From IMG/VR virus record IMGVR_UViG_3300033182_000487, positions 49,149 to 113,148 of that record: a stretch of DNA of 64,000 nt, one strand, 5' to 3'. The notes under the pieces were generated by a model. That model saw only the letters and a list, made by a program, of their open reading frames with translations, made no database searches and was not told the origin of the DNA. Origin of the DNA: a virus. A program made the translations under genes and the position numbers. Below, piece after piece: positions 11,146 to 52,585 of this stretch. The stretch's first letter is position 1. The number at the start of each line of letters is the position of its first letter.

Positions 11146-11466
11146 ATGGAAGACACGAAGACCGTATCTGTCCGCCGGGTCGCGATGGCGAAGCGGCTTG
11201 CGGCGAAGTGGATCCGATCTCACGCAGAGCCCGAGTACCGTCTCACGGTCTACCGGGGGTCAGGTCGTGAGTCCCGGAATCTGCCCGGACTGCTGCGGTC
11301 GTTCCGTGACGGCAAGATCAAGATCGCCGCGACCGAGCCAGTCCGCGACATGGGCATCAAGGCGGCCTTCGACCACATCACTGTCTGGTCGAAGGACAGG
11401 GAGGGGCTCCAGCGCCTCTCTGATGCCCTCCAGAAGATGGGCTGCGAAACCACAGGGGTCTTCTGA
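11146..11466 (+). CDS. Hypothetical protein with RVA/RLAAKW tag
   Basis: GGAG RBS; follows class II motif. Confidence 0.65.
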   Translation: MEDTKTVSVRRVAMAKRLAAKWIRSHAEPEYRLTVYRGSGRESRNLPGLLRSFRDGKIKIAATEPVRDMGIKAAFDHITVWSKDREGLQRLSDALQKMGCETTGVF

Positions 11467-11894
11467 TGGCAGCGTCCCTCGCCCAGTCTGAGTTCGTCTA
11501 CAGGTCGGGCACGAGCCCGGACATCTACACGTTCACCATCGTTTCCGATTCCCAGGGGAACCTGTCGGTGCGGGACATCGAAGACCCCTATGGGTTCGTG
11601 ATCTCGCCGTACACCCAGATCCCGCAGAGCGTGACCGCCGACATCTCCTCTGCCATGTCAGCCGTGGAGACTATTTTGGCACTCACATCAGCCGTCAACG
11701 GCACCCTGACCTTCACCGCTGAGACATCGAAGTCCGTGACCTTCGCCGAGGCGTTCGCCGACACCTCGTACCGAGTCCAGACGACCTCCGATGTCTTCGC
11801 CCCCTTCCGCATCACAAACAAGACCGTCCTGGGCTTCACCATCCAGGCCGGAGCCACCATCACCGGGACCGTCGGGTACGACGTCTTCGTGTGA
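11466..11894 (+). CDS. Putative virion protein; C-terminal domain shared with 38354..39913
   Basis: SKSVTFAEAFADTSYRV...ITNKTVLGFTI resembles SETITFDIPAPDTNYTV...IRNKTATEFRI. Confidence 0.55.
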   Translation: MAASLAQSEFVYRSGTSPDIYTFTIVSDSQGNLSVRDIEDPYGFVISPYTQIPQSVTADISSAMSAVETILALTSAVNGTLTFTAETSKSVTFAEAFADTSYRVQTTSDVFAPFRITNKTVLGFTIQAGATITGTVGYDVFV

Positions 11895-11897
11895 TCA

Positions 11898-11912
11898 CGG
11901 TAGCGAGCCTAT
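11898..11912 (+). promoter_or_regulatory. Class II motif CGGTAG-N5-CTAT
   Basis: Exact consensus, about 30 nt before ATG 11942. Confidence 0.75.
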
Positions 11913-11941
11913 GCCCCCGTGGGGGTGACTGGAGATTCACA

Positions 11942-13870
11942 ATGACCACACTCCCCATCGAGCGTACTGCTTCGACCTTGCGCAAGGTCAAGTCCATCCT
12001 TCGTCGGTCGGGCCTTCTGGACAAGGTTGAACTTGGCGGACGAGGCAGCGATTGGAACGTCGAGGCTCCCGATGGGACGATCCAAGAGCAGGTTTCCGAC
12101 GCGCTCCGCAAAGCCGGGATCAACGTCGGCGGCTACCGCACCGGATACGGCGCATGGGTCTTGAGCGAGTCGTACCAGACCGACGACTACGACTTCAACA
12201 ACCCGGCGAGCCGCAGCCACTACGCCTCGGATCACCTGCCTGTCGAAACCCGCACCGCCGCGTCGTTCTTCGACATGTTCTTCAAGGAGAAGAACGTCCC
12301 GTACAAGGTCTTCGACGTGACGGACTCGCAGGGGATCACGCACAGCATCCCCAACGAGGTCGTGATCAACATGATCAAGCAGACCCGTGGCCGCGAGAAG
12401 GCGAAGATCGAGGAGACGCTTCGCATGATCGACTTCAAGAACGGGGATGTGAACCACTACCTCCAGCACCTCGCTCGCGGTCTGGCCGAGCAGTACAGCG
12501 GAACTCTCCGCTTCGCTTCCGAGCAGCAGGCCGAGAAGTTTGAAGCCGAGGCCGAAGCCGCCGAGGCACAGGCCGAAGCCGACCGCCAGAAGGCCGATGC
12601 CTCCCGCTTGAAGGCGGCGGGTCTTGGACCTGTCGCCCAGACCATCCTTGACCAGATGGGTGGCAATCGAGTTCTGGCGATGCTTGGGGTCAACCGCCTT
12701 GTTGATCTCCGCAACGGCATCGGGATCGGCTGGCCCAACCGCCAGCGGTCGAAGGGCAACTACGTCGAGATCATGCTCAACGGGAAAGACCTGTACGACA
12801 TGACCTTCTACAACCTCTCCATGCGGGGGAAGAAGAAGGTCAAGGAGTTCAAGGATCTCTACAACGACTCGCTGGCCGATACCTTTGAGGGTCAGACGGG
12901 GTGGTATCTCCGCATGGCGTCCGACAAGGCCGCTGCTGGTGGCCTCTACGGCTACACGAAGGGCACCCAGCGGGACGTGGAAGCGTCCATCCGCAAGGCC
13001 CAGCGCCGTGCCGCCAGCATCGCCAAGACCCTCTACGCGAAGGACGAGCGGAGCGTGGACTTCTTGAAGGCCCACGCGAAGCGGGCCAACAGCAAGACCG
13101 CTCGCCTGATCCTGGCTGCCATGAAGACCATCGGACCCCGCGTGGCGTCCGAGACGCTTCCGAGCGAGCGTCATGCCTCGATCTACCACGCCTCTGAGCA
13201 GGAGCAGTTGGAGTACGTCGTCGATGCTCTCCGTCTGGCGGGTGAGCAGGGACTCCGTGTGGACGGCCTCCCCCGCAAGGGTGCCCTGGCCGCTCAGAGC
13301 AAGGGCCTTGCCGACGCCGAGCGCGGCTACCTCTACATCACCCGGAAGGGTCGGAACGTCCGCATGGCTGCCGAGGAGAAGGTCGCTGGTGGCCTCTACG
13401 GCTACCCCACGAAGACCGCCCGTCTCGCACTGGTCGCTTGCTCCGACCTCCGCGCCTACGTCGGCGAGGTTGCCTACGGGCTGCACAGCCGCCGCACGGC
13501 CCGGTACGACCGGATCACCGGCTTCCTCAAGGAGCACGGCAAGACCGCGAAGTGCGCCTACTCCCGCATGATCCTCGACTGCTACCCCGACGCTCCGGTG
13601 TCGAAGCAGGCGAAGGAGGAGTACCCCTGGCCCGAGTGCATCGCTGACCAGGAGAAGCAGTACGGCAGCAAGGAGACCGCCGAGAAGGTCTGCGGCAAGA
13701 TCAAGGCTCAGTCGCAGGGCAAGAGCGCAGGGGCCAAGGACTATGGGATCATGGGGGGCAAGTTGGCCTCCAGCGAGATGCTCAAGAAGGCGTTCGTTCC
13801 TGACTCGGTGGACGGCTGGCTGGAGTGGGAGGACGGCTCCCGTACCGCTGCCACCCGACGCCGTGGTTGA
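11942..13870 (+). CDS. Multi-module (polyprotein-like) hypothetical protein
   Basis: Small domains separated by RTA/RFA/RMA/RVA/RHA/KVA/KQA linkers; two GGLYGY domains; start moved to the ATG with GGAG RBS. Confidence 0.75.
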   Translation: MTTLPIERTASTLRKVKSILRRSGLLDKVELGGRGSDWNVEAPDGTIQEQVSDALRKAGINVGGYRTGYGAWVLSESYQTDDYDFNNPASRSHYASDHLPVETRTAASFFDMFFKEKNVPYKVFDVTDSQGITHSIPNEVVINMIKQTRGREKAKIEETLRMIDFKNGDVNHYLQHLARGLAEQYSGTLRFASEQQAEKFEAEAEAAEAQAEADRQKADASRLKAAGLGPVAQTILDQMGGNRVLAMLGVNRLVDLRNGIGIGWPNRQRSKGNYVEIMLNGKDLYDMTFYNLSMRGKKKVKEFKDLYNDSLADTFEGQTGWYLRMASDKAAAGGLYGYTKGTQRDVEASIRKAQRRAASIAKTLYAKDERSVDFLKAHAKRANSKTARLILAAMKTIGPRVASETLPSERHASIYHASEQEQLEYVVDALRLAGEQGLRVDGLPRKGALAAQSKGLADAERGYLYITRKGRNVRMAAEEKVAGGLYGYPTKTARLALVACSDLRAYVGEVAYGLHSRRTARYDRITGFLKEHGKTAKCAYSRMILDCYPDAPVSKQAKEEYPWPECIADQEKQYGSKETAEKVCGKIKAQSQGKSAGAKDYGIMGGKLASSEMLKKAFVPDSVDGWLEWEDGSRTAATRRRG

Positions 13871-13959
13871 CAGGAGGGTGAGAAGCGGTCGCTTCCACAC
13901 TCCCATCCCCACCCCGAAGACATTGACGAATGGAACCCCGTGATCGAGGACGACGAGAC

Positions 13960-14790
13960 ATGAGCCAGCACCAGCGCGACAAGCAGGCGTACTTGAACGC
14001 CACACCCATGCAGCGGGAAGTGGTGCGTCGGCTCCTGTGCGACGTGCTGGCGTGTTTGAGAGCGCAGTATCTCTCGTACCAGACCTCGCACTGGCAGGTC
14101 GTCGGACAGTCCTTCTACGGCAACCACCTGCTGTTTGAGCGGCTGTACTCGTCCGTCCTGCTCCAGATCGACTCCCTCGCCGAGAAGTTGGTCGGCTACC
14201 TCGGGCGTGACGTCGTTGACCTCTCCGGCCAGTTGGAGAAGATCTGGGAGTACACCTCGGTGTGGACGCAGATCGACTGCCACCACAAGCGAGGCATCCG
14301 GTCAGAGCAGGACATCCAGGCCGCGCTCCAGCGTGCCTACGACGGGATCAAGCAGGCCAAGGCGATGACCCTGGGCCTCGACGACTGGATCATGGCCACG
14401 GCCAACATCCACGAGGAGAACGAGTACCTCCTCCAGCAGGCGCTGACCCCAGTGCCCGGACAGAAGCGGGCATCGACCGACGAGGGCTACTTCTACGACG
14501 CCCCCGACCACCACGTCGTCCTGGACTTCGCAAAGAGCCGCGCCATCACCAACGATGTGGATGTCGCCAAAGACGCTGCCGCCGAAGATCACCTCGACAT
14601 TCCCGAATCACAGGCTGTCACCGAAGCCGAGGAAGCCCCGCCTCTCCCGACGGAGATCGCGCAGGAGCCTGGTGGCGCATCCGTTTCCACGCTGAATCAG
14701 TACGTCATCACGTCGGAAGACCCCGTGGCTGAGAAGGCTGTCGCCATGAACAAGGCCCACATGGCCGCATGGCTCAAGGAGTTGACCTGA
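13960..14790 (+). CDS. Dps/ferritin-like protein with acidic C-terminal extension
   Basis: HWQVVGQSFYGNHLLFERLY...IDSLAEK Dps signature. Confidence 0.8.
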   Translation: MSQHQRDKQAYLNATPMQREVVRRLLCDVLACLRAQYLSYQTSHWQVVGQSFYGNHLLFERLYSSVLLQIDSLAEKLVGYLGRDVVDLSGQLEKIWEYTSVWTQIDCHHKRGIRSEQDIQAALQRAYDGIKQAKAMTLGLDDWIMATANIHEENEYLLQQALTPVPGQKRASTDEGYFYDAPDHHVVLDFAKSRAITNDVDVAKDAAAEDHLDIPESQAVTEAEEAPPLPTEIAQEPGGASVSTLNQYVITSEDPVAEKAVAMNKAHMAAWLKELT

Positions 14791-18484: not shown

Positions 18485-18498
18485 AGGAGAACCCCACC

Positions 18499-18822
18499 AT
18501 GAAGTCCCTGACTGCTTCCGACCGCAAGACCCTCATTCGCCTCGCCTCGACACTCCCTGTGGGTGACGAGACTCGCAAGGCCATCCTCACCGGACTCGCC
18601 CAGACCCGCGAGGCTGGACGCCCCTGGGGCGGCCCCGGCTACGCGGCGAAGGCCGAGGACTACGACATCCCTCCCGCCCAGGGCGGCAGCGGCTCCCCGC
18701 CGTGCCAGCCGCTGGGTGACGGTCCCTGCTACCGGAAGCACGAGAACTCGCCTCCCGGCGGCACGAACGGCTCCGCGCAGCGCGCGAAGTACAACCAGTG
18801 GTATCGCGAAAACGCGATGTAA
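18499..18822 (+). CDS. Small protein with LIRLASTLPxG N-terminal tag
   Basis: AGGAG RBS; shared leader sequence. Confidence 0.75.
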   Translation: MKSLTASDRKTLIRLASTLPVGDETRKAILTGLAQTREAGRPWGGPGYAAKAEDYDIPPAQGGSGSPPCQPLGDGPCYRKHENSPPGGTNGSAQRAKYNQWYRENAM

Positions 18823-18845
18823 TCGCGTAGCGGCCCTGCCGTTGG

Positions 18846-18913: not shown

Positions 18914-20143
18914 TTGTTCGCTACCCTCACCGAAGCCCTCAAGCGGCGCATGATCGAGGAGATCCGGTACTACTGGGGCCAAGACCCGAAGTACAGGGAC
19001 TCGCTCGTGCCCAACATCCAGGGCAAGTTTTCCTTTCGGGAGCGACCACAGCAGGCCATCATCCTCAAGAGCCAGTCGGCCAGCCCCTTCCAGATGGCGG
19101 CGGACCACTACCAGGGGGCCATCGTCTCCTACTGCTACCTCACGAGGGTGTACGGGCAGCGAGGCACGAGCATCGAGTGGGTGCGGGAGAACGCGGTCGC
19201 CATCCAGGCCAACAGCGGTCTGTTCCCCTCGGCTCCGGGCGTCTACTACATCGAGGTCCGCTCCGAGGTCATCGACGTGCGCGGGGTGCCGAAGGAGAAG
19301 TTGGTCTTCTATGTGGACCCGCTCCTGGAGGTCATTGACCAGCGGCCCACGATGCTTGACCCCAGGCTCTACGAGGTCGCGGCGCAGTCGTTCCACCCCG
19401 GCTCGCTTCGGGTGTACGAGATGCCGGGGAACATCCCCTACTACGAGGACGTCAACTACACGGCTGACCCCACCACGGGCAGGATCACTCTTGCCAGCCC
19501 GTTGAAGCCCAACACCTACTTGTCGGTGGACTACCGCTACGCGGGAACCAGCACAGGGCCGTTCCCGCTCCCGGAGAACGGCTCCAACGTCCACGCCATC
19601 CCTGGCGTCGTGCTGGCCTTCGGTCGCCGAGCCTACGAGGGCGACATCATGGCGGTTGTCGTCGCCAATCGACGCGAGACCGTGGCGAAGGAGTTTGGTG
19701 GTCGGTGGGAGATGAACATCGACTTCGACATCATGGCGCGGGACGTCTACGCCCAGGGCGAGATCACGGACCGCACGATGATGTACCTGTACACCGACGC
19801 GAGGGACCGACTCTCGACCGAGGGCATCGAGATCACGATGGTCACGATGGGCGGCGAGGCCGAAGAAGTCTACGACGACGTGGGCGACGACTACTTCTAC
19901 ACGGCCAACATCTCGATGACGATCATGACCGACTGGGCCATCCATGTGCCTATCGGACGGACCCTGCTCAGGGCCGAGCCCAACACCGTGTCTGAGACCG
20001 AGATGGTCGCAGGTCTCACGGATGATCAGTTGGTCGAGATGGGGTCACCTACCGGGCTGCACTACGCGGAGTCGTTGAACCTCGTCCAGATCCGTGATCC
20101 CTACTTCCGGGGGCGCACGAAGACCTACGACCTGATCCGGTAG
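18914..20143 (+). CDS. Probable virion structural protein (neck/tail-completion-like)
   Basis: 409 aa; GGAGG RBS before TTG; beta-rich YTADPTTGRITL module; late region. Confidence 0.5.
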   Translation: MFATLTEALKRRMIEEIRYYWGQDPKYRDSLVPNIQGKFSFRERPQQAIILKSQSASPFQMAADHYQGAIVSYCYLTRVYGQRGTSIEWVRENAVAIQANSGLFPSAPGVYYIEVRSEVIDVRGVPKEKLVFYVDPLLEVIDQRPTMLDPRLYEVAAQSFHPGSLRVYEMPGNIPYYEDVNYTADPTTGRITLASPLKPNTYLSVDYRYAGTSTGPFPLPENGSNVHAIPGVVLAFGRRAYEGDIMAVVVANRRETVAKEFGGRWEMNIDFDIMARDVYAQGEITDRTMMYLYTDARDRLSTEGIEITMVTMGGEAEEVYDDVGDDYFYTANISMTIMTDWAIHVPIGRTLLRAEPNTVSETEMVAGLTDDQLVEMGSPTGLHYAESLNLVQIRDPYFRGRTKTYDLIR

Positions 20144-20152
20144 CCATCCTAT
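20138..20152 (+). promoter_or_regulatory. Class II motif CGGTAG-N5-CTAT
   Basis: Exact consensus, about 29 nt before ATG 20181. Confidence 0.75.
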
Positions 20153-20180
20153 GGCCCGCTACCAGGCAAAGGAGCCCCCC

Positions 20181-20618
20181 ATGAGCAAACTACGCACCAT
20201 CCTCGCCTCCGAGGGCCTGTACCTCGTGAAGAACAAGAAGGTGAAGTCCGAGTTGTGGCGTCGGCTCGCCGGGCGCGGTGACACATGGGGCCGCCGCCTC
20301 AATGAACTGAAGGCGGAATACATGCGTGAGGTCGTTGACGAAGCGGTCATCACCCTTCGGGTTGAAGGCGGGGCGAGAAGCGGCGAAGACACGAAGGTCA
20401 AGGGCAGTGTTCACGGTGTTGTCGGAGAGGTTCAGGGCACCTTCAAGGGTGAACCAGTCAAGTTGAGGTATCGGTGGGTGGATGGCGTCAAGACCATTGA
20501 GTCGGACCTCTCCATTGGCCGTGCATCGAAGAAGCACAAGATGGTCGTGTTGTCCTCGTCTCCGGCGAGTGTCGCCTCCGACAGCCTGTACGCGCACATC
20601 GGCGGGTTGATCTCCTGA
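20181..20618 (+). CDS. Hypothetical protein with LRTILASEGL N-terminal tag
   Basis: AGGAG RBS; leader shared with 37663..38097. Confidence 0.7.
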   Translation: MSKLRTILASEGLYLVKNKKVKSELWRRLAGRGDTWGRRLNELKAEYMREVVDEAVITLRVEGGARSGEDTKVKGSVHGVVGEVQGTFKGEPVKLRYRWVDGVKTIESDLSIGRASKKHKMVVLSSSPASVASDSLYAHIGGLIS

Positions 20619-30180: not shown

Positions 30181-30195
30181 CGGTAGCCTCTCTAT
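30181..30195 (+). promoter_or_regulatory. Class II motif CGGTAG-N5-CTAT
   Basis: Exact consensus, about 26 nt before ATG 30221. Confidence 0.75.
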
Positions 30196-30220
30196 GGACT
30201 CCCTGTGGGCAGGAGAGTCC

Positions 30221-37662: not shown

Positions 37663-38097
37663 ATGTTCAAGGCAAGCACACTTCGCCGCATCCTCGCTTC
37701 CGAGGGCATCCTCAAGACGGCGTATGCCAACACCCTGTCCTACATGGTGCAGTTGGGCAGTGATGCCGCGAACTACAATGCGACGGTGCGGGGGGAGGAC
37801 AACATCCCCAACTACCGCGACACCGCCAAGCAGGTCGAGCGCCTGCTGGAGAACAGCGTCCGCAACATCGACAGCATCACCTTCGATCCCCGTAGAGGGA
37901 CCATGAAGGTGTACTTGACGTTCGACTCTGGGGCCGACGAGGAGAAGTCCTTGTACAAGGCCGAGGCTGATCTGGAGAAAGCCTTCAAGGAGATCGGCGA
38001 GGGGTACGACCACCACCGCTACTTCCTCTACGGAAGCATCGACGGCGACTTCTCCGACTTCAAGATCGAGGACGGGGCCATCGAGGCGTGGGGCTGA
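37663..38097 (+). CDS. Hypothetical protein with LRRILASEGI tag followed by KTA linker
   Basis: AAGGAG RBS; leader shared with 20181..20618. Confidence 0.7.
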   Translation: MFKASTLRRILASEGILKTAYANTLSYMVQLGSDAANYNATVRGEDNIPNYRDTAKQVERLLENSVRNIDSITFDPRRGTMKVYLTFDSGADEEKSLYKAEADLEKAFKEIGEGYDHHRYFLYGSIDGDFSDFKIEDGAIEAWG

Positions 38098-39921: not shown

Positions 39922-41160
39922 ATGAGCAACCACGACGACTTCTGGACCAGCCTGGCTGCGGGCCACACCAACACGGTGCTGGCTGGCGCGATGGACTCCC
40001 ACCTGTCGGGCAAGAGCATCGACGAGTCGTTCGGCTCCGTTCGCACCCTGACCGACGTTCACCGACAGGCCAACGCGCTCTCCCTCCCCGTCGAGGCGGG
40101 CACGAAGGTCGTGTTCGCTGGCGGCCTGGGCGCGCACATGTCCTACGACGACGTGCCTGCTGATGGGATCACGGGCGAGGTCGTCACGGTCAAGTCCGCC
40201 ACGGGGAGCATCACCCACCACGACGGCAAGGTCTTCGTGAAGTGGGCCGACGGCAAGTTCCGTCCCATCCACGCCGAGCACCTGCGACTGGCTGGGCACG
40301 GCAAGCAGGCTTCCGGCAACACCCTCAAGGTTCTCCGTGACGGTCGCGAATACTGGATTGAGAGAGGTGGTCACCACCGTACATGGGATGATCGGTTCAA
40401 GGGCCCCTTTACCGCTGCTGATGTCGTCGGAGAAGTGGAGAAGCGCCTCAAGAAGGATCCTGATGTGGTCGTCATGGGGCGCAATCACTCTCTTGGTCGG
40501 AGCGGTGCGGCAGACGCATACAGTACGGCACCCTTCGTCATCCTTGACCGCAGGGGTGATGTGGTCGATGAAGGCTACACCCTTGAAGGTCTTTGGAATA
40601 AGTGGTTCGACCGCTTCCTCGGTTGGAGGATGGCTTCCTCGATTCAGGCATCCGACGTCAAGGCGACGTTTGAGAAGATCAAGGCCCTGGCCGAGAAGAA
40701 GCCGAAGAACAAGTTCCTCAAGGACTTGCTCAAGCAGATGGCCGACGAGGGCTTCACTCCCACCGAGAAGCAGATGAAGGTGGTGAAGGAGATCGAGGGC
40801 GAGATCGAGCAGCAGTCCGAGATGAAGAAGGAGTTGAAGGGCCTCGACAAGGACGCCGCGTTCGACCCGAGCATCATCGGCGAGAAGAAGGGTGGCCCGG
40901 TCGAGCATGACCCCGAAGACAAGAACATCATGAGGCACTTCGGTCAGGGCGACCTCCACGGCATGGCCGAGATGGTCAAGGGCAAGACGGCAACCTTCCG
41001 GGTCGCCAGCCTCGGCGACCTCACCCAGTTCCTCAAGGTCGCGGACGGCACACTGGTCCACAAGAGCACCAAGGATCTCTGGTCCTTCAACAAGGACGCC
41101 GACGGCAACTTCCTCGTCTCTCGGCTGTTCGACGACGAGGGCGAGCCCTTGAAGGTGTGA
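39922..41160 (+). CDS. Multi-module hypothetical protein
   Basis: Domains separated by KQA, RMA, KTA, RVA linkers. Confidence 0.65.
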   Translation: MSNHDDFWTSLAAGHTNTVLAGAMDSHLSGKSIDESFGSVRTLTDVHRQANALSLPVEAGTKVVFAGGLGAHMSYDDVPADGITGEVVTVKSATGSITHHDGKVFVKWADGKFRPIHAEHLRLAGHGKQASGNTLKVLRDGREYWIERGGHHRTWDDRFKGPFTAADVVGEVEKRLKKDPDVVVMGRNHSLGRSGAADAYSTAPFVILDRRGDVVDEGYTLEGLWNKWFDRFLGWRMASSIQASDVKATFEKIKALAEKKPKNKFLKDLLKQMADEGFTPTEKQMKVVKEIEGEIEQQSEMKKELKGLDKDAAFDPSIIGEKKGGPVEHDPEDKNIMRHFGQGDLHGMAEMVKGKTATFRVASLGDLTQFLKVADGTLVHKSTKDLWSFNKDADGNFLVSRLFDDEGEPLKV

Positions 41161-42614
41161 CCTTGTCTGCTGTGTCCCTATCGAGGACCGCTTCACGCTT
41201 CTCCGACCAGTACGAGTCTGCGGGGACGCTGGGTGGCGTGGACCCATCCCTTGCGAAGGAGATGGCTCAGTCCGGGTTGCTGGACGGCGACTCGGAGGAC
41301 GACAAGATCCCCACGTCGTCGAAGCCCATCAAGTCCGTCCAGTTGAACCCATCGCAGACGACCCTCGTGCTGAAAGACGTGGTGGGCATCGCTCTGGAGA
41401 TGCTGCTCAAGCGGCAGGGCCTCGGGGAAGACCTGGGAGCCCTGGTGTCCTCCGACCGCTACATCATGGACGGGCACCACCGCTGGGCCGGGAGCATCCT
41501 CGCTCATGGCCCACGAGCCTCAGTGAAGGTGTGGCTGTCCTCCCTGCCGGGGAAGGAACTCGTCCGGGTGTTGAACATCGTGAGCAAGGGGGCCTATGGG
41601 GTCACCTCCGGGAACACAGGCACCGGGTCCATCAACGACTTGACCCCAGCCAACGTCCGCCGCCAGTTGGAGACGTTCCTCCGCGAGGGGCGGCAGCACA
41701 AGCATTTCTCACCCTCAGCCGAGCAGGTGGCGAAGATCCTGGAGACCAACTTCGGGTCGGTGGAGAACGGGGTCAACGTGCTCGCCGAGCGGGCGAAGTT
41801 GATCCCGAAGGCGGTCCCCTCCTGGGCCCCTGTCCGGGACCAGATGCCGGTCATCCGCCGGAAGAAGGTCCAGGACGCAGCGAAGTTGCTCACTCAGGGG
41901 GTGGTGGACTGGGCCCCGCCCTACTCCGACTCCGAGCGCAGGGCTTCATTCGGTAGTGCGTCTATGGCCCCCCTCCCCGTAGGAGAGACATCCATGCGTC
42001 CTGATCCCACCCGCGTTGCAGCCCGATACGCTTCGCAGTCGAAGACTGCTGGCATGGTCCGTACTGCGGGCGAGGTCCGCTTCATCAAGGACCGCAGCGG
42101 TGACGCTGGCGAGTGGGCTTTCGGCCCTCCCGGTCCCAGCGAGCGTGACATCCAGCAGGACTTCGTGTTCAACGCGAAGCACCTCAAGCCACTGGCCCAG
42201 ACCCTCCGGTCTGCGCTGATGGCCCTCGGTCACGTCACCAGCGCCTACAACAAGTTCGTCAAGATCAAGAGCCGCAACGTGTCCCCCGACGGGTCGCTGG
42301 GCGGCAAGGGGTACATTCAGAAGATCCCCGACATGCGACGGCAACTGATGAACTGCGTGGAAGCACTCTCCGCTCTGACCGACACCATCTACGACGAGAT
42401 GACTGCACCTCACTGGAACCCCACCGAGGACACCCTCGACCCCCGCGACCGTGAGGAGGTCAAGGAGATCATCGAGGACGCCGAGGAGATCAAGGACGAT
42501 CCCGAGGCGTGGGCGTCCGGTCAGGAAGAAGAACTCGACGCGGAAAACGAGGAGGCGATGGGCAAGACCGCTCGCCGTGTGATGCTTCGGTACGCGAACA
42601 GGAGGCTCGCATGA
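41157..42614 (+). CDS. ParB/Srx-like domain fused in frame to a second protein with its own start at 41994
   Basis: LNPSQ...VSSDRYIMDGHHRWA; internal class II motif + AGGAG + ATG. Confidence 0.7.
   Translation: MTLSAVSLSRTASRFSDQYESAGTLGGVDPSLAKEMAQSGLLDGDSEDDKIPTSSKPIKSVQLNPSQTTLVLKDVVGIALEMLLKRQGLGEDLGALVSSDRYIMDGHHRWAGSILAHGPRASVKVWLSSLPGKELVRVLNIVSKGAYGVTSGNTGTGSINDLTPANVRRQLETFLREGRQHKHFSPSAEQVAKILETNFGSVENGVNVLAERAKLIPKAVPSWAPVRDQMPVIRRKKVQDAAKLLTQGVVDWAPPYSDSERRASFGSASMAPLPVGETSMRPDPTRVAARYASQSKTAGMVRTAGEVRFIKDRSGDAGEWAFGPPGPSERDIQQDFVFNAKHLKPLAQTLRSALMALGHVTSAYNKFVKIKSRNVSPDGSLGGKGYIQKIPDMRRQLMNCVEALSALTDTIYDEMTAPHWNPTEDTLDPRDREEVKEIIEDAEEIKDDPEAWASGQEEELDAENEEAMGKTARRVMLRYANRRLA
41951..41965 (+). 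promoter_or_regulatory. Class II motif CGGTAG-N5-CTAT inside a coding frame
   Basis: Exact consensus, about 29 nt before in-frame ATG 41994. Confidence 0.7.
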
Positions 42615-44794: not shown

Positions 44795-47176
44795 ATGTCG
44801 TTTGGGCCCTCAGCACGAAGGGTAGCCCGCCGTAAGCAGGCGGACGCGGACCACGCCACCTCCATCGCTCTGATGAAGTGGCTGTCGAAGCAGACAAAGA
44901 GTCTGGGGATCGCGCAGCACGTCTACATCGTGGGCGGTGCGGTGCGGAACTTCGTGCTGGACCAGCCCATCAAAGACATCGACATGGTGGTGGACTCGCT
45001 CGCCCTGCGGGGCAACCGCGACTCCGAGTGGGTGGCACAGCGCCTCGCCCAGCGGATTCCCGGCTCCGCGATGCCGAAGATCCACACCTCCAACCTGGGG
45101 GTGTCCACCATCAAGATCACAGGCGACTGGCTGCTCGACGGCAACCAGATGAAAGGCAAGGACATCGACATCGCGAACGCCCGTGAGGAGGAGTACGCGG
45201 TGGACCCCGCGACGGGCGAGTACACCGGACACAAGCCCATCAAGGTGAGCCCGACCACGATGGAGATCGACGTCTCCCGCCGTGAGTTCACGTTCAACAC
45301 GCTCATGTGGTCGCTGATGTCGGTCGCCGACGGCCCCGACAAGGCTGAAATCATCGACATCACTGGCTGCGGTCTGCGCGACTTGAAGAACCGCGAGATG
45401 CGCTGCCCCAGCGATCCCGACGAGACGTTCGCGCAAGACCCCACCCGGATCATCCGCACCATCAAGTTCGCCTTCAAGTACGGCATGAAGTTGCCACCCG
45501 ACGTGAAGGCCGCAGCGAAGCGGCAGGCGAAAGGGCTCAAGCGCATCCCGTCGAAGGCGTGGACCGTGCTCCAGACCATCGTGTTCGACAACCCTCAGTA
45601 CAAGAAGGCCCTCGACGTCATGGCTGACCTCGGGGTCACGGACGTGCTGGCCGAGATGATGCAGTCGGACAAGCAGTTCCGCTCCACCCTGGGCAAGTAC
45701 TCCCAGGGCCGGGGGTTGGCCTACATGTTCGACCTGATGGACGTGGGCATTCCCGTTGACGAGCCCTTGAAGTTCCTCGACGCGGACCAGCGGAAGCGTC
45801 TCCGAGAGGTCACGACGGGCATGGACCGCGATGACGCGATGGCCTACCTGGAGGCGTTGAAGAACCCCGGCAAGGTCTACGACCGCAAGTTCATCCCCAC
45901 CCTTGCCAACAGCCTCGGCTACGGCGGCAAGCAGATGCGGAACTTCATGCAGACGGTCACCCCGCTTGGCCGGGAAGCCCTGCTGCGTGACCCCAGCCTC
46001 AAGGACAACCCGTCGGCACTGATGCGCGAGGTCGAGCAGGCTGCGAAGCGAGCCCTCCCTACTCGGGTGGCGATGCGGTGGGCCTCCGAGAACGAGCCTA
46101 CTGACCCTGGCCTGTGGGCGAAGGTGCAGGCCCTCGCCAAGGGTGAGCAGAAGTCCATGACCCACGACGGCAAGACCATCGAGGCTCCCAACGACGGTGC
46201 GGGCTTCAAGGTGTTCCCGAGCGCCTACGCCAACGGCTGGGCGAGCAAGACCTACGGTGATCTCGGCGGCGGCTGGAAGAAAAAGGCTTCCGCATCTCGC
46301 ATCGCTGATGCGTGGGGTCCGATGCTCCGTGAGGCACGCAGCCAGAACCCCTATGCCACTGATTTCGGGGGTAGTTGGACCATCAAGTTCGACGTTGGAC
46401 GGATGGAGCCTCTGCTCTGGACACCTTCTGGGTTCAAGGATTCCCGCAAACTGGACTACACGCGCTCGTCACGCAGTCCGAAGGACTTCCGTACACAGGC
46501 GGAAGCCAACCGTGAGATCCAGACAGAGGTGTTGGACTTCATCCGAGACTACAGGTCAGATCAAGCAGACCTGATTCGTGGGTGGGGTTCTCGTACCGCT
46601 CGCGGCAAGGCGAAGAAGGACGTGGGCCACGGCGGGCTGGACGAGTGGTTTAGCGGCCACGGCGGGGCCAAGGGGAAGGGCGAAGGTGCTACCTGGGGTG
46701 ACTGGGTGGCCATCTCCCCCGTGACGAAGACCCTCGACTCTGGGAAGAAGGTCGAGAAGGGCGACATCGTGGGCGACTGCGGCATCTCCGATGACCCCGA
46801 CTGGAAGGAGATCACGAAGGGCGGCAAGGATCCGCTCAAGTGTATGCCTCGCCAGAAGGCCCACGACATGCCGAAGGCCGAGCGCGCCGAGAAGGCGAAA
46901 GCGAAGCAAAGGGCCGAGAAGGCTGACTCCAACCGGGGCAAGAAGCCAACCATGACCCCGACCTTCCAGAAAGAGAAGGGCAAGAAGAAGGCGTCTTCAG
47001 ATTGGTACTACCCGTGGGATGTGGCGAGCGGCTGCATCTGGGGGTCGGGCGCGTTCAAGTCCGTTGAGCCTGTCGAGACCTGTGGCGTTGAGAAGTCAGC
47101 GACGGTGCAGCGCATCCAGATGAAGCGGGAAGCCTCCGCACGGCTCCGCGCTGCGTGGCGAGGCGACCGTGGCTGA
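44795..47176 (+). CDS. CCA-adding/poly(A) polymerase-family nucleotidyltransferase fused to extra modules
   Basis: VYIVGGAVRN, KDIDM, SRREFTFN, QDPTRIIR; then PSAYANGW and GLDEWF modules. Confidence 0.85.
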   Translation: MSFGPSARRVARRKQADADHATSIALMKWLSKQTKSLGIAQHVYIVGGAVRNFVLDQPIKDIDMVVDSLALRGNRDSEWVAQRLAQRIPGSAMPKIHTSNLGVSTIKITGDWLLDGNQMKGKDIDIANAREEEYAVDPATGEYTGHKPIKVSPTTMEIDVSRREFTFNTLMWSLMSVADGPDKAEIIDITGCGLRDLKNREMRCPSDPDETFAQDPTRIIRTIKFAFKYGMKLPPDVKAAAKRQAKGLKRIPSKAWTVLQTIVFDNPQYKKALDVMADLGVTDVLAEMMQSDKQFRSTLGKYSQGRGLAYMFDLMDVGIPVDEPLKFLDADQRKRLREVTTGMDRDDAMAYLEALKNPGKVYDRKFIPTLANSLGYGGKQMRNFMQTVTPLGREALLRDPSLKDNPSALMREVEQAAKRALPTRVAMRWASENEPTDPGLWAKVQALAKGEQKSMTHDGKTIEAPNDGAGFKVFPSAYANGWASKTYGDLGGGWKKKASASRIADAWGPMLREARSQNPYATDFGGSWTIKFDVGRMEPLLWTPSGFKDSRKLDYTRSSRSPKDFRTQAEANREIQTEVLDFIRDYRSDQADLIRGWGSRTARGKAKKDVGHGGLDEWFSGHGGAKGKGEGATWGDWVAISPVTKTLDSGKKVEKGDIVGDCGISDDPDWKEITKGGKDPLKCMPRQKAHDMPKAERAEKAKAKQRAEKADSNRGKKPTMTPTFQKEKGKKKASSDWYYPWDVASGCIWGSGAFKSVEPVETCGVEKSATVQRIQMKREASARLRAAWRGDRG

Positions 47177-50100
47177 CCCGAAGCGCCTGGCAACCCTCCA
47201 CAAGCAGGGGGGCATCTACAAGCCGATGTCGGAGATCACGCCCGGCACTCAGGACTTGCTCGATTCGCCGACCCCGGCGTGGCTGGACCGCGACTACCCC
47301 TACGTCGCCCCTCCCGGAGAGGAGCACACGCTCCAGGAACTCAACTACCTCGTCTCGCTGATCCCGCTCCGTGAGAAGTGGGGCCCCTTCATCAAGGCTG
47401 CCGACGAGGACGTGGCAGGTCTGTTCGTGACTCTGTGCTCCGAGTTGGGTGCTCCCTGTGATCCTGATGCGCTCCATGAGATGGCCGACGAGGCCGCCAT
47501 CCTGATCACGAAGTTGAAGTGGCTCTACAACAGGCCGCGCCCCTACCAGATCGCCGAGAAGCACCAGCGCCTTGAAGGACAGGGCAGCGTGTGGCGACCC
47601 GGCGATTTCCCCGTCATGGGCACCGCGTCCGCGCACTCCCCGGCGTACCCGAGCGGCCACACCATCCAGTCGTTCCTGTTCGCTTCCCGACTGAGCGAGA
47701 CGTCCCCGCAGCACCGCAAGGCGTTCATGGACCTCGCCGAGAAGGTGTCCTTCTCCCGAGCCGTCGGCGGCTACCACTGGCCGTCTGACCTCGCGTTCGG
47801 CAAGGACATCTTCCGCCACATCGTCATGCCCCTGATGCCCTCGGCGGTCCGTGTGGCAAAGACCTTCACGGTGAACAAAGGCGACCCCATCTGGTACGGC
47901 AAGTACCAGAACAAGCGTGGGATCATCGACGGATTCAGCACCAACGACAAGGGCGACACCCTCATCACCGTCGAGCAGGTGCCCAACGAGTCTGGGCGCA
48001 AGCAGCCGAAGGAGATGAAACTGTTCAAGGTGCGCCCCCGCAAGGTCGAGGAGAAGAAGGCCGGGGGATCACGGACGCTCTACTACGTCGGCAAGCGCCC
48101 GGCACAGCCGAAGCCGAAGCGCGCCGAGTGGCGTCAACGAGGCCAGGACACTCCCGACTGGGTGCGTCCGTGGCTCGACGCCCCTGTGTCGAAGGGTGTC
48201 TTCCTGACCTCCAACCCGTTCCTCGTCGCTCCGAAGCACGGTGTGTTCGGGCACGTCTACGCCTACGAGGTTCCCCAGTGGGTCATCAAGGAGGCCAAGG
48301 GCATCCACCGCAAGGACGGGGCCAGCGAGGTCTTGATCCCCGAGCCGCTGTGGGAGCATGTGAAGTTCAAGGGCAAGTCCATGAGCCAGGACGACTTCCT
48401 GGACCAGGTCTACGGCAGCGACGACGCCGCCTTCACCCGGTCGCGGGGGAACAGGTACAGGACAAAGGCGGACTGGGAGGCCAGCAGGATGGCGTCTGTC
48501 CCGAAGAAGTACGAGCACATCGACTTCAAGCCCCCGGAGGGCGTGGCAAACGCCGCCGCGAAGGGGCTGGAACTGCGCCAGAAGGCCAGTCCGTCGAACC
48601 GTGGTGGCCTGACCCCAGCCGAAGCCAGCAAGCAGGGCATCGGCTCCGGCGTCCAGCGAGCGGTGAACCTCAAGAACCGTGATCCTGTCTCGCCGAAGGT
48701 CATCAAGCAGATGAAGGGCTTCCTCTCGCGCTCCGAGAAGTCCAGCGAGATCAGTGCGGAGAACCGGGGAACACCGTGGAACGACAAGGGCTACGTCGCG
48801 TGGCTGTTGTGGGGCGGTGATCCCGCGAAGGCGTGGGTCGAGAAGGTCATCAAGCAGATGGACGCCGCCGACGAGAAGGAGAAGCAGTCGAAGCAGGCTG
48901 CGGTCCGTTCGGCTGCGTCGAAGGCCCTGTCCAAAAAGGAAGTCCCGAAGGCGGATGGGAAGGGCACCACGACCGTCTACGAGTACGGCCCCCGCCAGGT
49001 GGCCGAGCGCCACAGGGAGAAGGCCGTCCGCATCGAGGCCCTCCGCAAGAAGATGGCCGACCTGCGCCAGAAGGCTCGTGGTGATCTCACCGCGAGTGAC
49101 CCTGAGACCAGGCTCACCGCGTTGGCGGTGTGCCTGATGGACGAGACCTACGAGCGCGTGGGCAACGAGAAATCCGCAAAGGACGGGCACTACGGGGTCA
49201 CCAACTGGACGGCGGACCACATCACGCTGTCGGACAAGGCGGCGACCATCCGGTACACCGGGAAGTCCGGCGTCAAGCACGAGAAGAAGGTCACCAACGC
49301 CCGTGTGCTCTCGGCACTCCGCAAGGCCCTCAAGGGCAAGGGCAAGGGCGACAAGGTGCTCTGCGACGGGGACGAGTGCTCGATCCTCGCCAAGGACGTG
49401 AACGCCTACCTCAAGCCCTACGGGATCACGGCGAAGGACATCCGTGGGCTCCACGCCAACGAGGAGATGAAGCACCACCTCAAGGCCCAGCGCAAGGCGG
49501 GTCCGGCTGACCTCCCGCACTCGCGCAAGGAGAAGGACCAGATCCTCAAGGCCGAGTTCCAGGCTGCGCTTGATCTCGCTGCTGCCGCTGTGGGCCACGA
49601 GGCTTCCACACTACGCAGTCAATACCTCGTACCCAGTATGGAAGCGTCCTACACACATGACGGCACGGTGCTCGACCGGCTCGACAAGAAGGCCACCCTC
49701 TCCGACTCCGAGAAGGAGGACCGGGAGACCGAGCGCCTGGTCCGCCGGTCTCCGAAGAAGAAGCCGCCTCGTCGTGACAAGGAGCGGGGCCGGATCGAGG
49801 GCGTCGAGGATGACCCCGACCCCGACGAGAAGCAGGACCAGAAGGATCGGTCGAACAACTACAAGGATGCGGCTGCCCGGCTCGCCCTGCGGTATCTGAC
49901 CGCAGGTGCAGCGAAGTCGAAGCGCCGCCGGAACAGGCCCCCCTCGGAACGCGAACTCGCCCGACGGAAGCAGCAGTCCGACGCCGCGAAGGCAAAGAAC
50001 CCGAAGCGCAAGGCCCCGCCGAAACTCAAGGAGGCTCCCGCCCCGAGCGGTGACCGTGAGGAACGCAAAGTCGGAGACGTCTGGGAAGGCAAGGACGGCA

Positions 50101-51458
50101 AGTGGTCTGCGAAGGGCGACGACGGCGTGCAGCGTGGCTTTGCGTCCCAGGACGCCGCGAAGGCGTGGTTGTCGGGCGGTCCGAAGCCGGGCGAGTCCGA
50201 TGCCCCGGAGTCGTCGAAGCCCCCGAAGACGGAGGAGCAGCAGGCCGTAGCGAAGATCAACGCGATGGTCGAGAAGTTGACCGCTGAGTCGAGCGAGGTG
50301 CTGCACAACCTGGACACCCAGACCCTGGGTGCCGTGGAGGAGGCGCTGGGCGACATCGCCGCACGGGTCACCGATATGGCCCTCAAGGCATTCTCCGTCA
50401 AGCAGTTGGAGGAGCAGGCACGGTTCGCCGAGTCTGTGCTACGCCGGGATGGGGAGCCCCCTACCCCGGCTGAGATCGCCAATGCGCTGCTCACGCTCCG
50501 GGCTAAGGAAGTCCGCAACGACCCCTTGCTCCTGGACCCGAAGAACCCCATCAGGAACCTGCCAAAGGAGCCGCTGGACTTGAAGGGGGACGCCCACAAG
50601 AAGCACATGAGCCAGATGGGTGACGCCTCCGTGAGGGCCATGTACGAGTACAGGGAGATGCCGAAGGACGACCGTGACGCCCACCGCGAAGGTCTCCGCA
50701 AGCACATGGAGGAGTTGGAGAAGGAAGGCGCGACTGACACCGAGCAGTACCACATGACCCTGGCTCAGTTGCGAGGGCTCCAGGTGGCTTCTGCCATGGA
50801 GGACGGAGACCAGGCCGTTGGGATCAGCCCGACCTTCCAGGTCATGCTCAAGGCTGCCGAGTCACAGGGTCAGGACGTGCTCAAGCAGTTCGTCAAACTC
50901 AACCTCACAGGTGCTGCGGAAGGGGACGTCCCTGCACAGCAGCAGTTCCGGCAGGTGCTCCGAGACACCGATCCGCAAGCACTGGCGAGAATCCTCCCCG
51001 AGGATCACCCGGCATACGAGGCCATCCAGGCGCTCACCGGAAACCATCTGGAGAACAGCAAGCAGAAGGCGCTCTGGATGAAGCACATGGACTCCGAGTC
51101 CCAGGAGATGATCCAGACCCTCATGGAAGATCTGGTCATGGATGACCTCATGTTCACGGACATGGACCTGGTTCGTGGTGGCATGGAGGTCGGGGACATC
51201 AAGGGGAAGGGCAAGAAGAAGCGCATGGAGCGCAGACGCAAGTTGGAGGACAAGAGCACCTCCGTCATGGCCCAGGTGATGGCGAAGGCGAAGGAGAAGG
51301 GGAACAACACCCTCTACACGCTGTCCTCCGGTTACTTCGGCAAGAAGACCAACTCCGGTCAGAAGCGCCCCACCAGCGGCAAGCCCCCTTCCAGTGGCAA
51401 GAAGGCATCCCCCGATCCGCTTTACGCTTACGACTTTCAACCCTGGGGGGCCCTGTGA
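47169..51458 (+). CDS. Multi-domain protein: PAP2 phosphatase/haloperoxidase + small modules + type IB topoisomerase + C-terminal region
   Basis: KWLYNRPRP, YPSGH, SRAVGGYHWPSD; ERVGNE...HYG, GKSGV, TAKDIR, VGH...RSQY. Confidence 0.8.
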   Translation: MADPKRLATLHKQGGIYKPMSEITPGTQDLLDSPTPAWLDRDYPYVAPPGEEHTLQELNYLVSLIPLREKWGPFIKAADEDVAGLFVTLCSELGAPCDPDALHEMADEAAILITKLKWLYNRPRPYQIAEKHQRLEGQGSVWRPGDFPVMGTASAHSPAYPSGHTIQSFLFASRLSETSPQHRKAFMDLAEKVSFSRAVGGYHWPSDLAFGKDIFRHIVMPLMPSAVRVAKTFTVNKGDPIWYGKYQNKRGIIDGFSTNDKGDTLITVEQVPNESGRKQPKEMKLFKVRPRKVEEKKAGGSRTLYYVGKRPAQPKPKRAEWRQRGQDTPDWVRPWLDAPVSKGVFLTSNPFLVAPKHGVFGHVYAYEVPQWVIKEAKGIHRKDGASEVLIPEPLWEHVKFKGKSMSQDDFLDQVYGSDDAAFTRSRGNRYRTKADWEASRMASVPKKYEHIDFKPPEGVANAAAKGLELRQKASPSNRGGLTPAEASKQGIGSGVQRAVNLKNRDPVSPKVIKQMKGFLSRSEKSSEISAENRGTPWNDKGYVAWLLWGGDPAKAWVEKVIKQMDAADEKEKQSKQAAVRSAASKALSKKEVPKADGKGTTTVYEYGPRQVAERHREKAVRIEALRKKMADLRQKARGDLTASDPETRLTALAVCLMDETYERVGNEKSAKDGHYGVTNWTADHITLSDKAATIRYTGKSGVKHEKKVTNARVLSALRKALKGKGKGDKVLCDGDECSILAKDVNAYLKPYGITAKDIRGLHANEEMKHHLKAQRKAGPADLPHSRKEKDQILKAEFQAALDLAAAAVGHEASTLRSQYLVPSMEASYTHDGTVLDRLDKKATLSDSEKEDRETERLVRRSPKKKPPRRDKERGRIEGVEDDPDPDEKQDQKDRSNNYKDAAARLALRYLTAGAAKSKRRRNRPPSERELARRKQQSDAAKAKNPKRKAPPKLKEAPAPSGDREERKVGDVWEGKDGKWSAKGDDGVQRGFASQDAAKAWLSGGPKPGESDAPESSKPPKTEEQQAVAKINAMVEKLTAESSEVLHNLDTQTLGAVEEALGDIAARVTDMALKAFSVKQLEEQARFAESVLRRDGEPPTPAEIANALLTLRAKEVRNDPLLLDPKNPIRNLPKEPLDLKGDAHKKHMSQMGDASVRAMYEYREMPKDDRDAHREGLRKHMEELEKEGATDTEQYHMTLAQLRGLQVASAMEDGDQAVGISPTFQVMLKAAESQGQDVLKQFVKLNLTGAAEGDVPAQQQFRQVLRDTDPQALARILPEDHPAYEAIQALTGNHLENSKQKALWMKHMDSESQEMIQTLMEDLVMDDLMFTDMDLVRGGMEVGDIKGKGKKKRMERRRKLEDKSTSVMAQVMAKAKEKGNNTLYTLSSGYFGKKTNSGQKRPTSGKPPSSGKKASPDPLYAYDFQPWGAL

Positions 51459-51481
51459 CCCCTCAGAATGGAAATCCTCCC

Positions 51482-51496
51482 CGGTAGGGTTTCTAT
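51482..51496 (+). promoter_or_regulatory. Class II motif CGGTAG-N5-CTAT
   Basis: Exact consensus upstream of the head operon. Confidence 0.75.
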
Positions 51497-51566
51497 ACTG
51501 ACACCCTATGGGTAGGACTTGTAGTGCAAGCCCTGCACCGGGAACCCACACCTTTCGGAGAAAACC

Positions 51567-52001
51567 ATGTCCAGACTGACCCGACGGGGAGCACGCAACC
51601 TGACTGCTACCCTCGACCGCATCGCTTCCACCGTGCAGGAGAACCCCGCTCTCCTCGGCATTGACCCCAAGATCGCAAAGGACTTCGCGTACCGCTGCGA
51701 CCTGATCTCGGACGCCGTTGAGCGTACCGCCGTCGCCAACTTCCCGAAGCAGGCCGACGAGAACAGCGCCATTCCCAGTGCTGGCGGTGACTACGAGGTC
51801 GCGAAGCCCGGCATCGAGAAGGAGATCGGCGCTGAGGTCAAGGGCCCCACCTACGAGGAAGACCCCTCGGACGGTGAGGACATCAAGGGCCACTTCACGC
51901 AGGCCGACTTCCACCAGTTGACCGAACTGGCTGAGAAGTTGAAGACTGCTGCCCAGAGCATCACGGTCGTCAACGATCACGGATTCAACCTCACCAAGTA
52001 G
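51567..52001 (+). CDS. Hypothetical head-region protein
   Basis: GGAG RBS; RIA/RTA/KQA/KTA motifs. Confidence 0.65.
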   Translation: MSRLTRRGARNLTATLDRIASTVQENPALLGIDPKIAKDFAYRCDLISDAVERTAVANFPKQADENSAIPSAGGDYEVAKPGIEKEIGAEVKGPTYEEDPSDGEDIKGHFTQADFHQLTELAEKLKTAAQSITVVNDHGFNLTK

Positions 52002-52009
52002 GAGGCACC

Positions 52010-52585
52010 GTGCGTCGGTTTGCCGAAAACTACGTCAACTACCAAGAGCGGGCCACCGAGTACTCCGTCGGAGACGTCGTGGTGCCGTTTGGTTTGTGGG
52101 ATTCCCAGAGCGGTCGAGTCACGGCTGTCTGGCCCGCTATTGGTATGGTGGACGTAGAGTTCCCGTCCGGCAACGCACGCTTCCCTGTTGAGGAACTCCA
52201 GCGTATGGGCGCTGATGGGCAAGCAGAGCCCCCCAGAACGGACTCGGCTCCGGGCGGGGGAGGCTCTGTCTCTGTTCCCGGCGGCCCGTACCCGGACAAG
52301 AAGAAGTCCGCCAACCGTGTGGCACAGGCGTTCGTCAAGCAGTCCCTTTACTGGGCGCAGAAGGATCGCCAGTACCGCATGACCCGCCCCGAGGTCAGTG
52401 CAGGACATCCCAACTGCCCTCGCTGTGATCACGGCCCTCTGAGCCGGACGGTCTACAAGCGCCGGGACGGCACCTCCGACCACCTTCTCGGGTGCAAGGG
52501 CTGCATGTTCCTGATCAAGGACGCCGACATCGTGAACTTCGGACCTGTAAGCGCCGAGGAGATCGAGATCGAGGGGCAGGACTGA
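52010..52585 (+). CDS. Hypothetical protein (SH3-like + RVAQAF tag + Zn ribbon)
   Basis: AGGAGG RBS; CPRC...CKGC. Confidence 0.65.
   Translation: MRRFAENYVNYQERATEYSVGDVVVPFGLWDSQSGRVTAVWPAIGMVDVEFPSGNARFPVEELQRMGADGQAEPPRTDSAPGGGGSVSVPGGPYPDKKKSANRVAQAFVKQSLYWAQKDRQYRMTRPEVSAGHPNCPRCDHGPLSRTVYKRRDGTSDHLLGCKGCMFLIKDADIVNFGPVSAEEIEIEGQD

Follow-up and report, generated by a model that had tools for sequence, protein, structure and literature searches.

A recurrent RVA peptide on unrelated head-block proteins of a phage G-like huge phage: a candidate docking helix for capsid loading

How does a short peptide of the form RVAxR[YWF] come to recur on otherwise unrelated proteins of a single virus? 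The question is raised by IMG/VR record IMGVR_UViG_3300033182_000487, of which we analysed positions 49,149 to 113,148 (64,000 nucleotides, hereafter the window, whose numbering is used for all nucleotide positions below). The window is the final 64 kb of a 113,148-bp contig (64% G+C) and is made up mostly of plus-strand genes in one co-directional block. An earlier note, written from the sequence without database searches, had listed 13 such peptides and read them as a capsid-targeting signal. Our analysis indicates that the peptide, here called the RVA tag, is a strongly selected short linear motif common to a large phage clade, whatever its function. That it is a position-independent docking helix for capsid loading, probably coupled to processing at nearby K/R-x-A-S/A sites, is a reading of the sequence evidence to which we give about an even chance. 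No published description of the tag was found in the searchable literature.

All 13 listed peptides are present on the plus strand, which confirmed the observation itself, and several of the positions given for them proved to be gene starts rather than positions of the motif. Copies were scored with a 12-column position-specific scoring matrix (PSSM), trained on the copies in related viruses with those of the window excluded, at a threshold of 11 bits; 11 of the 13 peptides reach this value and two fail. The contig gene set, called heuristically from G+C content at third codon positions (GC3) and length, comprises 110 proteins and 34,974 aa. This set holds 17 instances of R[VIL]A..[YWF], where within-protein shuffles give 3.3+/-1.9, and ten of the longer pattern A.R[VIL][AM]..[YWF], where they give 0.46; all ten are within 29733-52585. 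The matrix gives 13 matches, compared with 1.1 under whole-protein shuffling, 1.2+/-1.0 and about 1 when blocks of 20 and 10 residues are shuffled, and 3 when the sequences are reversed; raising the threshold to 15 bits leaves eight matches where 0.07 are expected. Twelve of the 13 matches lie in the window, between 11125 and 52585. An unbiased scan of all gapped four-residue patterns also placed S..RVA, SA..VA and SA.R.A among the top patterns that are not of low complexity. A repeat at the DNA level was ruled out, as synonymous codons vary freely among the copies, and the recurrence is therefore at the level of protein.

The enrichment extends to related viruses. Judged by its protein matches, the contig is a piece of a phage G-like huge phage, since the closest records by tblastn are the uncultured 485-kb phage LR745208.1 (major capsid protein [MCP] 85%, portal 66%), Tunturiibacter phage Tunturi_5 (MCP 50%) and Bacillus phage G (MCP 40%); a megablast search with 20 kb of the window against a phage collection gave no match, and relatives were found by protein search alone. 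We fetched 54 related IMG/VR loci with the 191-aa protein encoded at 52010-52585 as query (35-89% identity, 43-65% G+C). Across the 41 non-redundant loci, which span the same range of G+C content, the six-residue core was found 149 times against 15.6 expected (15.8+/-3.0 under block shuffling and 19 in reversed sequences), an enrichment of about tenfold that includes the low-GC relatives and that, as a regular-expression count, is independent of the training set in a way that a PSSM count in these loci is not. Since arginine, valine and alanine are common in the proteome (7.3%, 7.3% and 10%) and the pattern was picked after the data had been seen, we considered whether the motif could have arisen by chance or from the composition of a high-GC proteome rich in these three residues. 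We rejected this explanation, to which we assign virtually no probability: the window-free matrix recovers far more copies than any of its controls, the enrichment holds in relatives at 43-48% G+C, and positions that the pattern does not fix (-3, -2, +4 and +6, with the core numbered -3 to +6 and its arginine at 0) are conserved as well.

The profile of 94 non-redundant copies gives the consensus S-[A/P]-x-R-V-A-[S/A]-R-[Y/F/W]-L, in which isoleucine or leucine is also seen in place of valine. Information beyond the fixed positions resides in serine at -3 (4.3-fold), alanine or proline at -2, serine or alanine at +3, arginine at +4 (6.8-fold) and leucine at +6 (3.8-fold). Hydrophobic positions are +1, +2, +5 and +6, and the arginines stand at 0 and +4. 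The profile has a hydrophobic moment that peaks at 100 degrees (2.11, against 0.49-0.64 at 160-180 degrees), and the non-fixed positions alone show the same preference for helical periodicity. Serine followed by alanine or proline suits a helix N-cap. AlphaFold models of two unrelated proteins place the tag in a helix. For the 191-aa family (37 sequences), a confident beta domain (residues 10-70), a disordered segment (75-96), a helix (97-109) and a confident C-terminal domain are predicted; the helix coincides exactly with the tag and has a predicted local distance difference test score (pLDDT) of 55-61. For the C39 peptidase-like protein (40 sequences), the model has two confident domains joined by a low-pLDDT linker in which the tag forms a helix at 184-195. 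In both models the tag helix lies in an inter-domain linker and is not confidently packed on its neighbours, low pLDDT being no proof of a free helix. The short amphipathic helix that had been suggested is thus borne out by the moment peak, the N-cap signature and the models. A Foldseek search with the 191-aa model gave weak KOW/Tudor/Agenet-like matches at best (E 0.006 or worse).

The tag was said to sit at termini or between domains, and this agrees with its placement relative to Pfam domains, which it flanks at junctions and C-termini. In four polyproteins of relatives mapped to Pfam, no tag falls inside a domain envelope and the flanks are at about 15-35 aa. In relatives, the counterparts of two neighbouring window proteins, of 793 and 1429 aa, are often fused to form polyproteins 1,700-2,500 aa long, each of which bears several tags. 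The 2493-aa polyprotein of locus L025, for example, has a 2',5'-ligase-like module (128-234), a tag at 270, a nucleotidyltransferase (NTase) module (304-454), tags at 934 and 1437, topoisomerase IB (TopoIB; 1468-1671), a GNAT module (1753-1837) and a tag at 1910. The spacing between its internal tag at aa 270 and the NTase domain is the same as that of the N-terminal copy in the window, which precedes the domain by 34 residues; gene boundaries therefore fall beside whole tags. Tags also mark gene-fission boundaries, and gene termini retain whole tags rather than half-sites. The polyprotein line represented by L025, L041, L009 and L052 was further seen to include GNAT acetyltransferase, inorganic pyrophosphatase, 2',5'-RNA-ligase-like and poly(A)-polymerase-type modules.

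The C39-like peptidase domain, which has hundreds of homologues with quite different modules past the domain end, gives a similar picture. Among the 102 homologues with a recognizable domain end, 67 are tagged past the domain; the set holds 73 tags against 1.4 expected, one of them inside the domain, and several homologues scored as untagged carry obvious sub-threshold variants. For 27 of the 67 tagged homologues, no more than 20 residues separate the last tag from the C-terminus. When all sets are pooled, the last decile of the protein holds 56 of 224 tags, the aromatic residue of C-terminal tags is 4-8 residues from the end in 45 of 54 cases, and 13 tandem pairs occur. The 94 non-redundant copies include four within 15 aa of the N-terminus and 11 that are C-terminal, the rest being internal.

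Which proteins carry the tag is strongly structured by family. At 11 bits or more it is found in 24 of 30 TopoIB polyproteins, 11 of 15 NTase polyproteins and 14 of 29 orthologues of the 191-aa protein (20 of 29 at 8 bits). Ferritin-like proteins of relatives are tagged past the domain in five of six cases; the window's own ferritin/Dps-like protein (13930-14790; Pfam Ferritin, E 0.001; phrog_3636 DNA-binding protein) has no copy that reaches the threshold. The tag is absent from the MCP (0/25), decoration protein (0/23), portal (0/17) and terminase (TerL; 0/12), and rare in the protease (2/33) and the scaffold-like protein (3/28). Apart from two copies discussed below, it is restricted to non-shell proteins encoded in the head block, and the tagged genes of the window are located in the co-directional block between portal and protease/MCP. 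The helicase, clamp loader and other replication proteins of the contig carry no PSSM match, in keeping with the earlier remark that the tag had not been noticed in the replication genes. The gene for the 191-aa protein is kept throughout the clade, directly upstream of the protease gene, and in the alignment of its orthologues from the 54 loci R-V-A-x-x-[YFH] is nearly invariant, right behind a hypervariable linker of 0 to about 60 residues.

Within the window, twelve copies on the plus strand reach the threshold, on TopoIB/PAP2, NTase, C39 peptidase, small basic and other proteins of no assigned family, so that the carriers, which elsewhere include ferritin-like proteins, are indeed unrelated. 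Near the N-terminus of a 113-aa protein (11125-11466), MAKRLAAKWI (11185-11214; 17.9 bits) is partly conserved in the LR745208.1 orthologue and has a weaker overlapping copy, RRVAMA, directly upstream. SAERVASAFA (30737-30766; 18.6 bits) stands between the C39-like peptidase domain (Pfam Peptidase_C39_2, aa 20-132) and the C-terminal domain of a 303-aa protein (30194-31105), and SAARVATMYL (31360-31389; 18.6 bits) near the centre of a 146-aa protein that is very basic (31114-31554). The top copy, SARRVAQRYA (32980-33009; 21.3 bits), belongs to a 62-aa mini-protein (32836-33024, GC3 0.87) and leaves five residues between its aromatic and the stop. A 485-aa protein (41157-42614) has DPTRVAARYA at aa 286 (42003-42032; 18.3 bits), where the orthologous region of locus L002 shows the shifted variant SRVAGRM, and TARRVMLRYA at its C-terminus (42567-42596; 11.4 bits), six residues from aromatic to stop. 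In the 793-aa protein (44795-47176), which contains a poly(A)-polymerase/CCA-type nucleotidyltransferase head domain (PolyA_pol, aa 43-203), the N-terminal copy noted above is SARRVARRKQ (44810-44839; 13.7 bits), which lacks the aromatic; LPTRVAMRWA at aa 424 (46055-46084; 17.5 bits) is conserved in locus L005, and SASRIADAWG follows at aa 502 (46289-46318; 11.6 bits). The 1429-aa protein (47169-51458) joins a PAP2 phosphatase (aa 110-211) to a eukaryote-type topoisomerase IB (Topoisom_I, aa 613-814). Its copy SAVRVAKTFT (47841-47870; 14.5 bits), which was absent from the earlier list, lies 17 aa past the PAP2 domain and AAARLALRYL (49869-49898; 16.1 bits) past the topoisomerase domain; an orthologous 'LSLNYK-RVAxRW-L' copy is present in many relatives. 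SANRVAQAFV (52307-52336; 11.1 bits) is the copy of the 191-aa protein. The two listed peptides that fail are the look-alikes SLSRTASRFS (41175-41204; 8.2 bits), listed as SRTASRF, and DPKRLATLHK (47175-47204; 6.8 bits), listed as KRLATLH. RVARVF in the MCP (58136-58165) was rejected as a copy, as it scores 4.1 bits, is part of the conserved fold and is probably coincidental. Separately from the tag, the mini-protein at 32836-33024 and the protein at 44795-47176 (aa ~430-500) share an element upstream of it, LW.KAK..AK ... Y..G...K.Y ... KK.A, for which no Pfam family was detected.

A capsid-targeting signal, as first proposed, would fit both this gene neighbourhood and the distribution over families. 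In such a mechanism the tag would act as a portable amphipathic helix; by binding a putative receptor inside the prohead during assembly, it would bring accessory proteins into the capsid, the candidate receptors being the scaffold, the inner face of the capsid protein and the clade-specific 191-aa protein. The cargo would include the topoisomerase IB/PAP2 protein, the nucleotidyltransferase, the C39-like peptidase, the ferritin-like protein and small basic proteins, with GNAT, pyrophosphatase and 2',5'-ligase-like modules added in relatives. Giant polyproteins would carry one tag per module and would probably be cut by the head protease at K/R-x-A-[S/A] beside or inside the tag, freeing the modules in a manner comparable to the 'target then process' scheme of T4; delivery into the host may then follow.

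The suggested coupling to cleavage raises the alternative that the tag is itself a cutting site. The tag had been described as often next to a K/R-x-A site, and this association is moderate: it holds for 3 of 13 tags in the contig (0.7 expected), and in relatives [KR]-x-A-[SGA] occurs within nine residues upstream of 16 of 133 tags against 4.5 expected, with -6 and -4 as favoured offsets. T4-type [LI]xE sites are not enriched within 14 aa of tags (17/146, compared with 30/146 for random positions). Conserved [KR]-x-A-[SA] motifs are found in three head proteins: the scaffold-like protein has four (21-25 of 28 members), the MCP has one close to its N-terminus (24/24) and the protease has one (28/28); because it is this motif, rather than the tag, that is conserved in these three proteins, such sites are candidate head-protease cleavage sites and, judged by conservation, a better candidate for the cleavage signal than the tag. 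Homology does not allow the specificity of the protease to be inferred, since phrog_18299 was the one match to its sequence and no Pfam or PDB sequence match was obtained, and no cleavage or targeting motif for phage G-type heads was found in the searchable literature, phage G proteomics papers included. The tag could nevertheless be an extended recognition sequence of the head maturation protease (e.g. R-V-A|S-R-Y) whose sole role is to cut polyproteins. Its position at module junctions of polyproteins of up to ~2,500 aa and at gene-fission boundaries, the match of its core to the very motif that is conserved in the scaffold, MCP N-terminus and protease, and the enrichment of serine or alanine at +3 would all be expected of such a site. 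However, the full motif is nearly or wholly missing from the usual substrates of a head protease (MCP, portal, scaffold-like protein and the protease itself, in the proportions given above), and its periodicity is helical rather than extended, as is its AlphaFold prediction. A quarter of the copies are C-terminal with a tail of 4-8 residues, and others are in tandem, where a cut would have no obvious purpose. Because of this helical pattern, the C-terminal geometry, the tandem copies, the whole tags kept at gene ends and the absence from usual substrates, docking is favoured over pure cutting, which appears to us unlikely and less likely than a docking helix.

A second alternative keeps the helix and changes its partner: the tag may gather enzymes in the infected cell by binding a phage or host hub protein, a chaperone or a nucleic-acid scaffold rather than a capsid component. 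Nucleic acids or nucleotides are the targets of many tagged modules (TopoIB, NTase, GNAT, pyrophosphatase and 2',5'-ligase-like modules) and two copies lie outside the head block, as this would predict. Yet the tagged genes are concentrated in one co-directional block running from portal to protease/MCP, the replication proteins are untagged, and the tag, the cargo polyproteins and the 191-aa gene occur together and are all missing from Tunturi_5 and phage G, a co-occurrence that for the 191-aa gene is partly by construction because all loci were fetched with its product. We judge a non-capsid partner to be improbable, much as we do cutting alone. A general membrane-binding amphipathic helix in the style of the MinD or FtsA C-terminus is very unlikely. 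While a basic and aromatic amphipathic helix, often at the extreme C-terminus, would suit such a role, membrane-targeting helices are conserved in composition and not in sequence; here there is little variation at specific residues (R at 0, V at +1, the small A at +2 and R at +4), and many copies are internal, between folded domains.

Several observations weigh against capsid docking as the function of the tag. In the head regions of phage G and Tunturi_5, which are the cultured relatives, the tag is no more frequent than expected by chance, and their virion proteomes are thus uninformative about it; both phages have the sheath, tail terminator, portal, protease and MCP in common with the present one, but neither the 191-aa gene nor the tagged polyproteins. 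The relatives in which the tag is present are uncultured without exception. One strong copy belongs to a 140-aa protein encoded far outside the head block, and one copy to the 113-aa protein beside replication genes. The N-terminal copies in the window are degenerate. The counts for the C39 family and for the loci are not independent events, the sequences being related by descent. Finally, the tag core R-V-A-[S/A] itself fits [KR]-x-A-[SGA] and could be a cleavage site, in which case a cut inside the tag could release docked cargo.

If the tag is a docking helix, its form may be compared with other short loading elements. Encapsulin cargo-loading peptides, which direct unrelated enzymes into an HK97-fold shell, are extended, rich in Gly, Ser, Leu and Ile, and usually single. 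A likeness may lie in a short terminal peptide on enzymes, as ~25% of RVA copies are C-terminal with a tail of 4-8 residues and the genes are in the head block, whereas the RVA tag is a basic amphipathic helix, mostly internal and in several copies, and the shell in question would be a phage capsid with scaffold and protease. P22 gp8 and the herpesvirus assembly protein have C-terminal capsid-binding helices, of which the herpesvirus one is released by protease cleavage at the M site. There too an amphipathic, partly basic helix near the C-terminus could dock on the shell interior and be released at an adjoining protease site, but those helices belong to the scaffold, while here the scaffold-like protein is largely untagged and the tag is on enzymes and polyproteins. 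By analogy, the form of the RVA tag appears closer to encapsulin peptides and scaffold C-terminal helices than to the capsid-targeting sequence (CTS) of T4, to which it had originally been likened.

In T4, the CTS carried by the internal proteins IPI-III and by Alt is a propeptide of ~10 residues at the N-terminus, which targets the scaffolding core and is removed by the prohead protease gp21 (PMC9026906, citing Mullaney and Black 1996). The comparison holds for the proposed role, in that both are short portable peptides on unrelated, often basic or enzymatic proteins encoded with head genes, with proposed loading into the prohead and processing nearby. It fails for position and cut site: the T4 element is N-terminal, present once per protein and ends in L/I-x-E, whereas few RVA tags are N-terminal (4/94), many being internal, multi-copy or C-terminal, and their sequence is unrelated. 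In phiKZ and SPN3US many head-internal proteins are likewise encoded near head genes and have propeptides cut at a short consensus (PMC10052503, PMC5694885). In SPN3US the propeptides are N-terminal and mostly much longer (one of ~20 residues, several of ~125), with a short motif as the site of removal (PMC5694885, PMC10052503). The element shared among these proteins, unlike the RVA tag, is a three-residue cut motif of the A/S/G-x-E type behind long N-terminal propeptides, and no shared helical docking motif is described in either report (PMC10052503, PMC5694885).

A second portable module, tag A, was observed in the same phage. It spans ~28 aa with the pattern (A)DR.ALIRLA[SA]TLP.G[SD].ER[KR].ILA[GS]L, of which IRLA occurs 11 times against 0.8 expected. 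In the window it forms the N-termini of the proteins encoded at 18499-18822 and 29733-30179; upstream of the window it is present in three copies in an 878-aa protein, at the C-terminus of a 280-aa protein and at the N-terminus of a 171-aa protein. The sequence R.ILASEG at the N-termini of 20151-20618 and 37663-38097 is possibly related. Like the RVA tag, tag A is found at N-termini, C-termini and junctions of unrelated proteins; it differs in being a longer helix-loop-helix of other sequence, with carriers dispersed over the genome. The two sets of carriers do not overlap, 29733-30179 alone having tag A and a weak RVA look-alike (6.9 bits). Taken jointly, the two modules might represent a modular peptide address code of the phage G-like clade, with at least two orthogonal tags that would each sort their own set of enzymes into the virion. 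In this scheme the 191-aa protein, modelled as an SH3/KOW-like barrel followed by a flexible linker, an RVA helix and a zinc-ribbon-like domain, would be a dedicated RVA receptor or adaptor. The tag would function wherever it stood in a protein, the head protease would cut at a release site contained in the tag (R-V-A|S) after loading, and TopoIB, nucleotidyltransferase, acetyltransferase and other enzymes would be injected with the DNA. We regard this extended scheme as speculative and decidedly unlikely in its entirety.

Should the RVA tag be a loading signal, it would account for the presence of dozens of unrelated enzymes in the heads of huge phages and would make capsid cargo predictable from sequence in hundreds of uncultured genomes. 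Like the T4 CTS before it, it would also be a short peptide with which foreign proteins could be packaged into phage capsids, in this case independently of position. The eukaryote-type topoisomerase IB, the nucleotidyltransferase and others would then be probable virion-delivered proteins, which bears on host takeover.

The head genes that frame the tagged block are all on the plus strand. The large terminase subunit (33028-34989; phrog_2, E 1e-21) and the portal (35915-37618; phrog_16240, E 3e-33) are untagged in the window, as are the head maturation protease (52492-55287; phrog_18299) and the scaffold-like protein with its four conserved sites (55284-56759), which was assigned by position alone. 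The MCP gene (57614-58486; phrog_2522, E 2e-54) has its candidate site, K24-L-A-A|S, at 57683-57694. The protease gene contains an intein at ~53116-54399 (Hint/Intein_splicing Pfam matches at aa 209-636); its orthologue in L002/LR745208.1 has 480 aa and is intein-free, and several relatives have protease open reading frames of 913-943 aa. Directly downstream of the MCP gene, the open reading frame at 58645-60639 has LAGLIDADG homing-endonuclease and DNA-methyltransferase-like matches. Among tail genes, 18914-20143 aligns to the tail terminator of Tunturi_5, and a 1722-aa open reading frame at 22531-27699 aligns at both ends to its tail sheath, making this an unusually large sheath protein. Finally, the pattern C..CGH was observed six times against 0.01 expected in six different proteins across the contig, including those encoded at 27778-29289 and 52492-55287, and may represent a shared zinc-knuckle element.

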